From the NCBI RefSeq assembly GCF_055900595.2, contig NZ_CM148325.1: 64,000 nucleotides of DNA; one strand, written 5' to 3'. Of this stretch, positions 6,354 through 54,900 are shown piece by piece. The notes beneath the pieces were generated by a model. That model had not been told where the DNA came from. It saw only the letters and a program-made list of their open reading frames with translations, and searched no databases. The translations under genes and the position numbers were made by a program. Position 1 is the first letter of the stretch. Every line of letters starts with the position of its first letter.

Positions 6354-6380
6354 TTATCGGCAATTTGTGCGCAAAGTTTA
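6354..6380 (-). promoter_or_regulatory. sigma28 (FliA) class-3 promoter of fliDST
   Basis: Minus strand reads TAAACTTT-N11-GCCGATAA (consensus TAAAGTTT-N11-GCCGATAA), about 40 nt upstream of the fliD ATG. Confidence 0.8.
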
Positions 6381-6473: not shown

Positions 6474-6500
6474 TAAAGTTCGAAATTCAGGTGCCGATAC
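6474..6500 (+). promoter_or_regulatory. sigma28 (FliA) class-3 promoter of fliC
   Basis: TAAAGTTC-N11-GCCGATAC, about 70 nt upstream of the fliC ATG. Confidence 0.8.
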
Positions 6501-6569: not shown

Positions 6570-8144
6570 ATGGCACAAGTCATTAATACAAACAGCCTGT
6601 CGCTGTTGACCCAGAATAACCTGAACAAATCTCAGTCTTCTCTGAGCTCCGCCATTGAACGTCTCTCTTCTGGCCTGCGTATTAACAGTGCTAAAGATGA
6701 CGCAGCAGGTCAGGCGATTGCTAACCGTTTTACAGCAAATATTAAAGGTCTGACTCAGGCTTCCCGTAACGCGAATGATGGTATTTCTGTTGCGCAGACC
6801 ACTGAAGGTGCGCTTTCTGAAATCAACAATAACTTACAGCGTATTCGTGAATTGTCAGTACAGGCCACTAATGGTACAAACTCTGACTCCGACCTGAATT
6901 CAATTCAGGATGAAATTACACAACGCCTTAGTGAAATTGATCGTGTTTCTAACCAGACACAATTTAATGGTGTAAAAGTTCTGGCTTCTGATCAGACTAT
7001 GAAAATTCAAGTAGGTGCGAACGATGGTGAAACCATTGAGATTGCCCTTGATAAAATTGATGCTAAAACCTTGGGGCTTGATAACTTTAGCGTAGCACCA
7101 GGAAAAGTTCCAATGTCCTCTGCGGTTGCACTTAAGAGCGAAGCCGCTCCTGACTTAACTAAGGTAAATGCAACTGATGGTAGTGTGGGAGGTGCTAAAG
7201 CATTCGGTAGCAATTATAAAAATGCTGATGTTGAAACTTATTTTGGTACCGGTAATGTACAAGATACAAAGGATACAACTGATGCGACCGGTACTGCAGG
7301 AACAAAAGTTTATCAAGTACAGGTGGAAGGGCAGACTTATTTTGTTGGTCAAGATAATAATACCAACACGAACGGTTTTACATTATTGAAACAAAACTCT
7401 ACAGGTTATGAAAAAGTTCAGGTGGGTGGTAAGGATGTTCAGTTAGCAAACTTTGGTGGTCGTATAACTGCATTTGTTGAAGATAATGGTTCTGCCACAT
7501 CAGTTGATTTAGCTGCGGGTAAAATGGGTAAAGCATTAGCTTATAATGATGCACCAATGTCTGTTTATTTTGGGGGAAAAAACCTAGATGTCCACCAAGT
7601 ACAAGATACCCAAGGGAATCCTGTACCTAATTCATTTGCTGCTAAAACATCAGACGGCACCTACATTGCAGTAAATGTAGATGCCGCTACAGGTAACACG
7701 TCTGTTATTACTGATCCTAATGGTAAGGCAGTTGAATGGGCAGTAAAAAATGATGGTTCTGCACAGGCAATTATGCGTGAAGATGATAAGGTTTATACAG
7801 CCAATATCACGAATAAGACGGCAACCAAAGGTGCTGAACTCAGTGCCTCAGATTTGAAAGCCTTAGCAACCACAAATCCATTATCCAAATTAGACGAAGC
7901 TTTGGCAAAAGTTGATAAGTTGCGCAGTTCTTTGGGTGCAGTACAAAACCGTTTCGACTCTGCCATCACCAACCTTGGCAACACCGTAAACAACCTGTCT
8001 TCTGCCCGTAGCCGTATAGAAGATGCTGACTACGCAACCGAAGTGTCTAACATGTCTCGTGCGCAGATCCTGCAACAAGCGGGTACCTCTGTTCTGGCAC
8101 AGGCTAACCAGACCACGCAGAACGTACTGTCTCTGCTGCGTTAA
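6570..8144 (+). CDS. fliC: Flagellin FliC (H-antigen; 524 aa, not the K-12 H48 allele)
   Basis: Track ORF; conserved N-terminus [12 protein letters not shown]... and C-terminus ...QNVLSLLR; AT-rich hypervariable centre. Confidence 0.95.
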
Positions 8145-8163
8145 TTTACACTTATCGCTCAAA

Positions 8164-8186
8164 CCCCGCCACCGGCGGGGTTTTTT
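8164..8186 (+). terminator. Rho-independent terminator of fliC
   Basis: CCCCGCC-ACC-GGCGGGG hairpin followed by TTTTTT. Confidence 0.85.
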
Positions 8187-8275
8187 CTGCATGGAATTTA
8201 CCGGTAACCCCCAAATAACCCCTCATTTCACCCACTAATCGTCCGATTAAAAACCCTGCAGAAACGGATAATCAT

Positions 8276-26557: not shown

Positions 26558-29910
<3,353 letters not shown>

Positions 29911-29916
29911 GAGCGG

Positions 29917-30345
29917 TTAATCACCCGTAAGTGGAACTAACAGCACATCGACCTCACTTGAGGCAATCACTCTTTTCGCCGAGCAGGATGCTCGCGAAAA
30001 GAAACTGTGATTGTGATTACCGCAAATCACCAAATCGAAATGATGTTTGTGACATACTTCCAGAATATGTTCGCTTAACTCACCGTAGGCAATAAACGTC
30101 TTGTCAACGGGATACCCCGCATCCTGAATTAACTTATCAAGAAAGCTTTGCGTTTCTTCTTGCATCACGCTGCGTAAATCTTCAAGCATCGGCGCGGCTA
30201 ATTGATTGTACATTTCCGGGTCGGAAGCGAGAGTAATTAAACTGATGTGTCCCTTTACTGGCCTGGCGATAGATACCGCTTTTGCCAGCAGTTGCTGACT
30301 TTCCGGTGTAACCGCAACAGCGACAAGAATATTGCTATAGCTCAT
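29917..30345 (-). CDS. uspC: Universal stress protein C (UspC/YecG)
   Basis: Track ORF 142 aa; matches K-12 UspC. Confidence 0.9.
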   Translation of the reverse strand: MSYSNILVAVAVTPESQQLLAKAVSIARPVKGHISLITLASDPEMYNQLAAPMLEDLRSVMQEETQSFLDKLIQDAGYPVDKTFIAYGELSEHILEVCHKHHFDLVICGNHNHSFFSRASCSAKRVIASSEVDVLLVPLTGD

Positions 30346-30848
30346 AACCTGTTCCTTATTCTGTGAACTTCAGGTGACATTAAAGCTTTACTCCTAATGG
30401 AGAAACGACGCAATCCCAACTCGGTCAAACAGGTAAATATTAGTCTGATTATTAGTAAAGACAATTAATCAATCACTCCCGGTGATCATATAATTTCAAA
30501 TGTAATTATAAGAAAATAGTGTACTGATTCTCCGCATTAAACAAGTGGTTAATATATGTAAAACATTTCATTTAACATTATGTTGATTGTTGCCTTTCTT
30601 TGTATTTAATTAGTTTGTTGTGCGGTAAGTGTCTGTTTAAAAATAGCTTATCTGGTATTGCATGAAAGTGATTATTTATAGCAGATGATTATTTACGGTG
30701 AGTTATTTTAACTGTGCGCAACATCCCATTTCGATTATTCCTGTTTCATTTTTGCTTGCTAGCGTAGCGAAAAACTTTTTAACAGATTGAAATACACCCA
30801 AAACAAAAGTATGACTTATACATTTATGTTAAGTAATTGAGTGTTTTG

Positions 30849-30864
30849 TGTGATCTGCATCACA
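30849..30864 (+). promoter_or_regulatory. CRP binding site of the flhDC class-1 promoter
   Basis: TGTGA-TCTGCA-TCACA, perfect CRP half-sites about 270 nt upstream of the flhD ATG; the surrounding 780-bp AT-rich region 30346..31124 is the flhDC regulatory region. Confidence 0.8.
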
Positions 30865-31124
30865 CATTATTGAAAATCGCAGCCCCCCTCCGTTGTATGT
30901 GCGTGTAGTGACGAGTACAGTTGCGTCGATTTAGGAAAAATCTTAGATAAGTGTAAAGACCCCCTTCTATTTGTAAGGACTTATTAAACCAAAAAGGTGG
31001 CTCTGCTTATTGCAGCTTATCGCAACTATTCTAATGCTAATTATTTTTACCGGGGCTTCCCGGCGACATCACAGGGTGCGGTGAAACCGCATAAAAATAA
31101 AGTTGGTTATTCTGGGTGGGAATA

Positions 31125-31475
31125 ATGCATACCTCCGAGTTGCTGAAACACATTTATGACATCAACTTGTCATATTTACTACTTGCACAGCGTCTGATTG
31201 TTCAGGACAAAGCGTCCGCTATGTTTCGTCTCGGCATAAATGAAGAAATGGCGACAACATTAGCGGCACTGACTCTTCCGCAAATGGTTAAGCTGGCAGA
31301 AACCAATCAGCTGGTTTGTCACTTCCGTTTTGACAGCCACCAGACGATTACTCAGTTGACGCAAGATTCCCGCGTTGACGATCTCCAGCAAATTCATACC
31401 GGCATCATGCTCTCAACACGCTTGCTGAATGATGTTAATCAGCCTGAAGAAGCGCTGCGCAAGAAAAGGGCCTGA
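31125..31475 (+). CDS. flhD: Flagellar master regulator subunit FlhD
   Basis: Track ORF 31116..31475 trimmed to ATG 31125 ([20 protein letters not shown]...); matches K-12 FlhD (116 aa). Confidence 0.95.
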
Positions 31476-31477
31476 TC

Positions 31478-32056
31478 ATGAGTGAAAAAAGCATTGTTCA
31501 GGAAGCGCGGGATATTCAGCTGGCAATGGAATTGATCACCCTGGGCGCTCGTTTGCAGATGCTGGAAAGCGAAACACAGTTAAGTCGCGGACGCCTGATA
31601 AAACTTTATAAAGAACTGCGCGGAAGCCCACCGCCGAAAGGCATGCTGCCATTCTCAACCGACTGGTTTATGACCTGGGAACAAAACGTTCATGCTTCGA
31701 TGTTCTGTAATGCATGGCAGTTTTTACTGAAAACCGGTTTGTGTAATGGCGTCGATGCGGTGATCAAAGCCTACCGTTTATACCTTGAACAGTGCCCACA
31801 AGCAGAAGAAGGACCACTGCTGGCATTAACTCGTGCCTGGACATTGGTGCGGTTTGTTGAAAGTGGATTACTGCAACTTTCCAGCTGCAACTGCTGCGGC
31901 GGCAATTTTATTACCCACGCTCACCAGCCTGTTGGCAGCTTTGCCTGCAGCTTATGTCAACCGCCATCCAGGGCAGTAAAAAGACGTAAACTTTCCCAGA
32001 ATCCTGCCGATATTATCCCACAACTGCTGGATGAACAGAGAGTACAGGCTGTTTAA
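31478..32056 (+). CDS. flhC: Flagellar master regulator subunit FlhC
   Basis: Track ORF 192 aa; zinc-binding cysteines (CNCCGG...CSLC); matches K-12 FlhC. Confidence 0.95.
31987..32013 (+). promoter_or_regulatory. sigma28 promoter of motAB-cheAW, located inside the flhC 3' coding region
   Basis: TAAACTTT-N11-GCCGATAT, about 170 nt upstream of the motA GTG and 43 nt before the flhC stop. Confidence 0.75.
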
Positions 32057-32114
32057 CTGATACGGTGAGGCGCAACATTCCAGCAGCGGTAACGACGTAC
32101 CGCTGCTTTTTTTT
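32020..32114 (+). ncRNA. Candidate MotR-like sRNA from the motA 5' UTR (sigma28 promoter to intrinsic terminator)
   Basis: Promoter at 31987-32013 is followed about 70 nt later by AGCAGCGG...CCGCTGCT hairpin plus TTTTTTTT (32082..32114), which also terminates flhDC; ends are approximate and rest on published MotR descriptions as recalled. Confidence 0.4.
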
Positions 32115-32182
32115 GCCCCAATCGCGCGTTAACGCCTGACGACTGAACATCCTGTCATGGTCAACAGTGGAAGGATGATGTC

Positions 32183-33066
32183 GTGCTTATCTTATTAGGT
32201 TACCTGGTTGTTCTCGGTACAGTTTTCGGCGGTTATTTGATGACCGGTGGAAGCCTTGGAGCACTCTATCAACCCGCTGAACTGGTGATTATTGCCGGTG
32301 CAGGGATTGGGTCGTTTATCGTCGGCAATAATGGCAAAGCGATTAAAGGCACGCTGAAGGCGCTGCCGTTGCTGTTTCGTCGCTCCAAATACACCAAAGC
32401 AATGTATATGGATCTGCTGGCTCTGCTTTATCGGTTGATGGCAAAATCGCGGCAGATGGGGATGTTTTCGCTGGAACGTGATATTGAAAATCCCCGTGAG
32501 AGCGAGATCTTCGCCAGCTACCCACGCATCCTCGCGGATAGCGTCATGCTTGATTTTATCGTCGATTATCTGCGCCTGATTATCAGCGGTCACATGAACA
32601 CCTTCGAAATCGAAGCCCTGATGGATGAAGAGATTGAGACGCACGAAAGCGAGGCAGAAGTCCCGGCGAACAGTCTGGCGCTGGTCGGGGACTCACTTCC
32701 GGCGTTTGGTATTGTTGCGGCTGTAATGGGGGTCGTTCACGCGTTAGGTTCAGCCGATCGTCCTGCCGCCGAGCTGGGTGCGCTTATCGCACATGCGATG
32801 GTGGGGACTTTCCTCGGCATTTTATTGGCTTACGGATTTATTTCCCCATTAGCGACTGTTTTACGTCAGAAAAGCGCCGAAACCAGCAAAATGATGCAGT
32901 GCGTCAAAGTCACTCTGCTTTCTAATCTGAACGGTTACGCACCGCCTATCGCCGTTGAGTTTGGTCGCAAAACGCTCTATTCCAGCGAACGTCCGTCGTT
33001 TATTGAACTGGAAGAGCATGTGCGTGCGGTGAAAAATCCGCAACAACAGACGACAACCGAGGAAGC

Positions 33067-33070
<4 letters not shown>
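32183..33070 (+). CDS. motA: Flagellar motor stator protein MotA
   Basis: Track ORF 295 aa, GTG start; matches K-12 MotA. Confidence 0.95.
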
Positions 33071-35962
<2,892 letters not shown>

Positions 35963-36572: not shown

Positions 36573-36599
36573 TAAAGTTTCCCCCCTCCTTGCCGATAA
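36573..36599 (+). promoter_or_regulatory. sigma28 promoter of tar-tap-cheRBYZ
   Basis: TAAAGTTT-N11-GCCGATAA, an exact match to the sigma28 consensus, about 30 nt upstream of the tar ATG. Confidence 0.9.
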
Positions 36600-54802: not shown

Positions 54803-54900
54803 GCCGGATGCGACGTGAACGCCTTATCCGGCCTACAAAATTGTGCAAATTCAATATATTGCAGGAGATGAGTAGGCCTGATAAGCGTAGCGCATCAGGC
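54803..54900. repeat. REP pair (BIME) between torZ and cmoB
   Basis: GCCGGATGCGACGTGAACGCCTTATCCGGCCTAC (54803-54836) and inverted GTAGGCCTGATAAGCGTAGCGCATCAGGC (54872-54900). Confidence 0.75.

Follow-up and report, generated by a model that had tools for sequence, protein, structure and literature searches.

The DNA between the last codons of flhC and the start of motA is, judged by its sequence identity, almost certainly the motR gene of E. coli, which has already been characterized. In the window, i.e., the whole stretch of 64,000 nt that was analyzed, positions 32020-32114 agree at 95 of 95 nt with the ncRNA gene motR (b4828) of E. coli K-12 MG1655. The RefSeq entry of MG1655 lists it as "small RNA MotR" at 1977208-1977302 on the minus strand, with a length of 95 nt and overlapping the end of flhC. 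The T7 template that was published for MotR, ACAACTGCTGG...CCGCTGCTTTTTTTT, comprises the same 95 nt (Melamed et al., 2023, supplementary file 3, PMC10578931). The identity with b4828 and with the template fixes the 5'-end of MotR at A32020 and its 3'-end at the end of the T-run. An earlier note on this DNA had proposed a MotR-type sRNA locus with a short RNA of about 90 nt. The locus turned out to be that of MotR itself, and the proposed length was close to the 95 nt from 32020 to 32114. Nothing was found that contradicts the identity. The following features were located, with the basis of each assignment in brackets:

31125-31475, plus strand: flhD (ORF list).
31478-32056, plus strand: flhC, 192 amino acids, with the promoter and MotR nt 1-37 in its last 70 nt (ORF list, E. 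coli annotations).
31987-31994, plus strand: sigma-28 -35 element, TAAACTTT (sequence, consensus scan, conservation).
32006-32013, plus strand: sigma-28 -10 element, GCCGATAT, over FlhC Ala177-Asp178 (sequence, consensus scan, conservation).
32020-32114, plus strand: small RNA MotR, 95 nt, from A32020 to the end of the U-tract (identity with b4828 and the published template).
32065-32067, plus strand: MotR nt 46-48 (GUG), the seed that was changed in the published MotR-M1 (MotR-M1 template sequence).
32082-32107, plus strand: terminator hairpin, 10 bp with a 6-nt loop (sequence; upper-stem covariation in 65 orthologues).
32107-32114, plus strand: T8 tract, terminator tail and MotR 3'-end (sequence; published MotR template).
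32115-32182, plus strand: rest of the motA 5'-UTR, contained only in readthrough transcripts and ending at the motA GTG at 32183 (sequence, ORF list).
32183-33070, plus strand: motA, with the GTG start at 32183 (ORF list).

The RNA thus starts inside flhC and ends in the motA 5'-UTR, on the same strand as flhDC and motAB-cheAW. Its end is a Rho-independent terminator with a 10-bp stem and T8, i.e., the 3'-module of Hfq-dependent sRNAs. MotR of E. coli K-12 (Melamed et al., 2023, eLife 12:RP87151) is the same RNA; the flhC-internal promoter, the terminator and the location in the motA 5'-UTR all agree. Between 31960 and 32190 the window differs from MG1655 at a single position, a synonymous AGG/CGG arginine codon at 31970, upstream of the promoter. 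The identity with K-12 is complete from 31971 up to and including the motA start, which covers the promoter, the RNA in full and the motA leader, and the seed at nt 46-48 is present and unchanged. The window belongs to an E. coli chromosome; a 351-nt query spanning the site had a match in 5376 of 5426 complete genomes, with 100% identity among the matches listed. The window strain differs from MG1655 also upstream of flhD, where it has no IS1. The intergenic region between uspC and flhD (30346-31115, about 770 bp) contains no insertion sequence, whereas MG1655 has IS1H there, so that the strain has an uninterrupted flhDC regulatory region.

A search of the window from 30000 to 34000 against Rfam 15 gave no match at E<=1, and there is no MotR family. 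The automated RefSeq annotation of a non-K-12 strain, E. coli L73 (locus L092), lists only flhC and motA at this place. The absence of MotR from both looks like a gap of the library and of the annotation, and not like a missing RNA. Two small open reading frames were discarded. One is an antisense ORF of 45 amino acids at 32013-32150 on the minus strand, which has neither a ribosome-binding site nor supporting evidence. The other is a nine-codon ORF (MNREYRLFN, 32031-32060, plus strand), which lies inside MotR and out of frame with flhC, lacks a recognizable ribosome-binding site, and is probably meaningless.

The -35 and -10 elements are separated by an 11-nt spacer, and the promoter matches the sigma-28 consensus TAAAGTTT-N11-GCCGATAA at 14 of 16 positions, with two mismatches. 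The last base of the -10 element lies 43 nt before the last base of the flhC stop codon (TAA, 32054-32056), with 40 nt between them, exactly as had been claimed for a near-consensus sigma-28 promoter at this site. The element ends 6 nt upstream of the MotR 5'-end, and the codons GCC GAT beneath it encode Ala177-Asp178 of FlhC. For the motA promoter within flhC, FliA ChIP and reporter activity have been reported in E. coli and Salmonella, and it was described as the most conserved FliA promoter, which constrains Ala177-Asp178 of FlhC (Fitzgerald et al., bioRxiv 10.1101/188474). The promoter in the window is this intragenic FliA promoter of motA itself (Fitzgerald et al., 2014; 2018, bioRxiv 10.1101/188474). 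Scanning the 64 kb of the window with the consensus and up to three mismatches yielded five matches, compared to 0.55 expected, a roughly ten-fold enrichment, and none of 100 shuffles gave five. Two of the other matches form a divergent pair (6354-6380, minus strand, and 6474-6500, plus strand), which by position we infer to be the fliD and fliC promoters. Another one, a perfect 16/16 match at 36573-36599 (plus strand), lies upstream of tar and by position should be the tar promoter. The remaining match has three mismatches and is located at 28755-28781 on the minus strand, antisense at the position of otsA in the strain L73 annotation; it may be due to chance or be an intragenic FliA site.

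In the terminator hairpin positions 32082-32091 pair with 32098-32107, six of the ten base pairs are G-C, and the predicted energy is -16.7 kcal/mol. The stem starts 69 nt past the -10 element and 26 nt past the flhC stop. Hence the strong intrinsic terminator that had been claimed about 70 nt downstream of the promoter is found at 69 nt and is followed by T8, and all distances given in the earlier note were correct to within a few nucleotides. The hairpin and its T8 tract are the sole intrinsic terminator between the flhC stop and motA, which is followed by motB and cheA, all on the plus strand in the ORF list. We infer that the MotR terminator also ends the flhDC transcripts; neither term-seq nor other 3'-end data for flhDC transcripts were found in the literature that mentions MotR.

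Conservation was analyzed with 80 flhC loci of related Enterobacterales that retain motA, one genome per species, and flhC, its stop codon and motA were located in each of them. All 80 contain the promoter, which matches the consensus at 13-15 of 16 positions, and in 79 of them it precedes the last base of the flhC stop codon by exactly 70 nt. The -35 element is TAAACTTT in 76 loci and TAAACTTA in the other four. The one exception in position is an Enterobacter cloacae locus (L069), in which flhC ends early. Its promoter has a score of 13.5, a 10-nt spacer, and a distance of 103 nt to the stop codon, and the same hairpin and T8 are retained. In 66 loci, all from Enterobacteriaceae or Erwiniaceae, a strong hairpin followed by T6-T9 is present 46-51 nt past the flhC stop; one Pantoea locus with an insertion has the hairpin and T-run 69 nt past the stop. 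The hairpin of Pectobacterium and Brenneria is of another kind and its U-tract is poor, apart from T5 in one Brenneria (L074), and in Serratia a hairpin without U-tract immediately follows the flhC stop. In addition, ten distant FlhC homologues were traced to their contigs, and in nine of these motA follows downstream of flhC (Yersinia, Dickeya, Edwardsiella, Xenorhabdus, Proteus, Rahnella, Providencia, Moellerella, and Photorhabdus). The promoter is at the same place in all nine, although it is weaker in Moellerella, and a hairpin with a U-tract was found in none of the nine. As far as the compared genomes tell, the sRNA form with a U-tract terminator is thus confined to Enterobacteriaceae and Erwiniaceae. 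Because the promoter has been kept where the hairpin lacks a U-tract, the promoter function is older than the terminated sRNA and is ancient in the Enterobacterales. In Serratia (L071, L077, L081), Pectobacterium (L073, L075, L076) and the loci L082-L091, the motA leader keeps a strong stem-loop about +55 to +100 from the conserved start. In these families without U-tract terminator it might act as a weak terminator, as a processing site or as a stabilizer.

The two strands of the terminator were analyzed in an alignment of 65 distinct orthologues. Pairing was found in 98.1% of all cells, 22 cells were changed on both sides, and none of 500 shuffles gave a value as high. The double changes all fall into the three upper pairs of the terminator, whereas variation is absent from the lower five. 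The upper stem is therefore supported by compensatory changes.

The coding sequence of flhC was also compared codon by codon for 72 distinct genes from 72 species, and 154 codons that are both degenerate and well conserved were evaluated. For these, the most frequent codon has a median share of 0.57, and only 16 are at 0.97 or above. Thirteen of these 16 near-invariant codons are codons 167, 168, 170-172, 177-178, and 182-187. Codons 170-172 (31985-31993) belong to the -35 element, codons 167-168 (GTA AAA, 31976-31981) lie just upstream of it, and codons 177-178 belong to the -10 element. Codons 182-187, which are invariant at their synonymous sites, correspond to MotR nt 2-19. They are downstream of the start site, and hence the promoter hexamers do not explain their invariance. 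The constraint on FlhC has been ascribed to the -10 element (Fitzgerald et al., bioRxiv 10.1101/188474), and the present codon analysis adds codons 167-172 and 182-187. Because codons 167-168, upstream of the -35 element, are invariant as well, the footprint of the promoter on the coding sequence may extend beyond the known Ala-Asp motif.

The function of MotR has been studied with the identical K-12 sequence. A band of about 95 nt was observed, which is lost in a fliA deletion strain (Melamed et al., 2023, PMC10578931). MotR is enriched with Hfq by co-immunoprecipitation, and longer bands were ascribed to transcription past the MotR terminator and on into motAB-cheAW (PMC10578931). An RNA of about 90-100 nt, its dependence on fliA and its co-immunoprecipitation with Hfq, which the earlier note had named as checks, have thus all been published already (PMC10578931). 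MotR base-pairs within the coding sequences of rpsJ and fliC, for which RIL-seq targets and footprinting on both mRNAs are available. It raises the levels of S10 and of flagellin mRNA and increases the number of flagella, and chromosomal phenotypes have been reported; the seed mutant MotR-M1 abolishes the up-regulation of S10 and the effect on flagella (PMC10578931). FliA dependence, Hfq binding and function in trans may be carried over from this literature to the window strain. The sigma-28 (FliA) RNA polymerase would start at A32020 from the promoter in the last flhC codons, and some transcripts would end at the intrinsic terminator (32082-32114) and yield the 95-nt Hfq-binding MotR. The remaining ones would read through and give rise to the motAB-cheAW mRNA. 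According to the published work, MotR would then act in trans by pairing inside the coding sequences of fliC, rpsJ and others.

The arrangement of promoter and hairpin alone would also permit another reading, namely, that the promoter merely serves motA, the hairpin merely terminates flhDC, and the short RNA is an inert by-product. The Yersiniaceae, Pectobacteriaceae, Morganellaceae, and Hafniaceae, which keep the promoter and have a hairpin without U-tract, would fit this reading. However, it is contradicted by the Hfq association, the RIL-seq targets, the rpsJ and fliC footprinting, the M1 seed mutant, and the chromosomal phenotypes (PMC10578931), and it is very improbable. The locus encodes a regulatory RNA that is known, annotated and was experimentally characterized in 2023, and its recognition here is not a discovery.

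The fliC allele of the window strain differs from that of K-12, and its 3'-UTR lacks the K-12 FliX-S sequence. Downstream of an ORF of 524 amino acids at 6570-8144, which is fliC by position, the 3'-UTR (8142-8190, plus strand) comprises about 40 nt, with TAATTTACACTTATCGCTCAAA followed by the terminator CCCCGCCACCGGCGGGGTTTTTT. When up to three mismatches are allowed, the window nowhere contains the body and seed of K-12 FliX-S (..GTCAGCAACGTGCTT..). MotR is apparently present in this strain, whereas FliX, its proposed counterpart, seems to be missing in the K-12 form.

The only new lead is a complementarity between the 5'-end of MotR and its terminator, which was not found in the MotR paper (PMC10578931) and is suggestive only. 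Searching that text for an alternative RNA structure gave nothing, and only protein-mediated antitermination is discussed. MotR nt 5-12 are perfectly complementary, over 8 bp, to nt 60-67:

32024-32031, plus strand: MotR nt 5-12, CUGCUGGA, flhC codons 182-185, proposed antiterminator strand ((nearly) invariant in 65 orthologues).
32079-32086, plus strand: MotR nt 60-67, UCCAGCAG, overlapping the lower 5'-arm of the terminator (complementarity to nt 5-12).

The helix 5-12:60-67 and the terminator helix 63-72:79-88 are predicted to be mutually exclusive, because they overlap at nt 63-67. This would extend the identification of MotR and does not rival it: nt 5-12 might be a built-in cis antiterminator that sets the partition between MotR and the motAB-cheAW mRNA. 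Nt 5-12 would pair with nt 60-67 as the latter emerge, sequester the lower 5'-arm of the terminator, and favor readthrough. On flhDC transcripts ribosomes would block the helix, since they translate the end of flhC, to which nt 1-37 belong. It is more speculative still that translation of flhC makes the terminator promoter-specific, i.e., efficient for the flhDC mRNA and leaky for the untranslated sigma-28 transcripts. We consider the existence of such a cis antiterminator to be unlikely, and the arguments on both sides are as follows.

The helix dominates the predicted nascent folds. From nt 1-68 to nt 1-80 its probability is 1.00 (-17.9 to -19.9 kcal/mol), and with nt 1-86 a value of 0.78 remains, the helix and the upper terminator stem being combined in one hybrid fold. 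For the full 95-mer the terminator form is predicted at -26.9 kcal/mol versus -23.1 kcal/mol with the helix enforced, a gap of only 3.8 kcal/mol. Such thermodynamic folds, however, ignore kinetics and proteins. The helix is predicted at P>0.9 in 63 of the 65 orthologues. The blocks nt 2-15 (CAACTGCTGGATGA) and nt 60-69 (TCCAGCAGCG) are invariant in the alignment, 99.4% of the cells of the helix are paired, and no pair varies on both sides. With both strands invariant no covariation is possible, and the alignment argues neither for nor against the helix on this count. The pattern of variation within the terminator, with invariant lower 5 bp and a varying upper stem and loop, would be expected if the 5'-arm has to fit two partners, and the invariant synonymous sites of codons 182-187 in 72 species likewise favor a role of the 5'-block.

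The more distant families point in different directions. The different hairpins of Pectobacterium, Brenneria, and Yersinia are predicted to pair partly with the 5'-block, whereas Dickeya, Edwardsiella, Xenorhabdus, Proteus, Rahnella, and Photorhabdus lack a predicted pairing of this kind. Because pairing is predicted in some of them only, these taxa neither confirm nor exclude the helix. Several distant taxa keep ACAACUG(C/U)UGGAUG regardless of pairing. Xenorhabdus and Photorhabdus retain the 5'-block ACAACUGCUGGAUG, and Proteus has it with a single change, although the hairpin differs and no pairing is predicted, so that its conservation must have another cause as well.

The sequestration energy of the terminator 5'-arm is -10.3 kcal/mol, compared to -4.5 +/- 2.6 kcal/mol for dinucleotide shuffles and -3.5 +/- 2.7 kcal/mol for synonymous recodings; 25 of 1000 shuffles and 20 of 1000 recodings were as low. 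These nulls, with p about 0.02 by shuffles and recodings, are suggestive, but not decisive. Among the 31 terminator-like hairpins in the window MotR ranks second for predicted upstream sequestration, and over all nulls it belongs to the top 2-6%; comparable values thus occur elsewhere. The strongest predicted sequestration of a 5'-arm in the window, -16.5 kcal/mol, exceeds that of MotR and belongs to a hairpin with T5 at 54876-54900 (plus strand).

Published mutants also bear on the proposed helix. MotR* is a mutant "identified by chance", with nt 6-8 changed from UGC to GAG (32025-32027), and according to its authors it is "more abundant" (Melamed et al., 2023, PMC10578931). The change lowers the predicted probability of the helix to about 0.1, and better termination in MotR* would give more of the short RNA. 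The abundance could equally result from the stability of the RNA. Deletion of csdA, which encodes an RNA helicase, raises the level of MotR 4.3-fold (PMC10654059), which is in line with a role of the helix. On the other hand, replacement of flhC by a thyA cassette gave full motility, which relied on cotranscription of motA (bioRxiv 10.1101/188474), and the terminator may therefore be leaky anyway.

Readthrough may be set in trans. As an explicit speculation, Melamed et al. put forward that S10 favors readthrough at the motR terminator (PMC10578931). In this model the terminator would be subject to S10-NusB antitermination, and MotR, by raising S10, would increase readthrough in a negative feedback. 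The authors themselves term it a hypothesis (PMC10578931), and we regard it as somewhat unlikely. The S10-NusB model and the proposed cis RNA switch are compatible and not mutually exclusive.

In transcription attenuators, e.g., the trp leader, alternative antiterminator and terminator helices are formed, and small RNAs are released from them. If the helix of MotR is real, the analogy would be close: an upstream strand would compete with the 3'-arm for the 5'-arm of the terminator, and translation of the upstream strand would decide the outcome. The terminated product, MotR, would be trans-acting. Unlike attenuators, MotR lacks a leader peptide: what is translated is the final part of a complete upstream gene, flhC, and this happens only on the transcripts of another promoter.

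If the proposed antiterminator exists, it would set the share of sigma-28 transcripts that become MotR or motAB-cheAW mRNA. Transcripts of the class 1 operon would be terminated tightly, whereas termination would be leaky for those from the embedded class 3 promoter. Since only flhDC transcripts have their MotR 5'-segment translated, a single terminator would have two efficiencies, which would be a simple mechanism for a promoter-specific terminator. The helix would account at once for the lack of synonymous changes in codons 182-187, for the lower stem that does not vary, and for the raised level of MotR*, and it would represent a second constraint at the RNA or DNA level on the FlhC coding sequence, in addition to the -10 element.

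MotR itself is a textbook-level part of the flagellar regulon of E. coli and is contained in the K-12 reference annotation, so that finding it in the window adds nothing new. Its recovery from the sequence alone, despite the lack of an Rfam family, means that the signal is findable. For the family, the comparison delimits the sRNA form with U-tract to Enterobacteriaceae and Erwiniaceae, within an order in which the promoter inside flhC is older.
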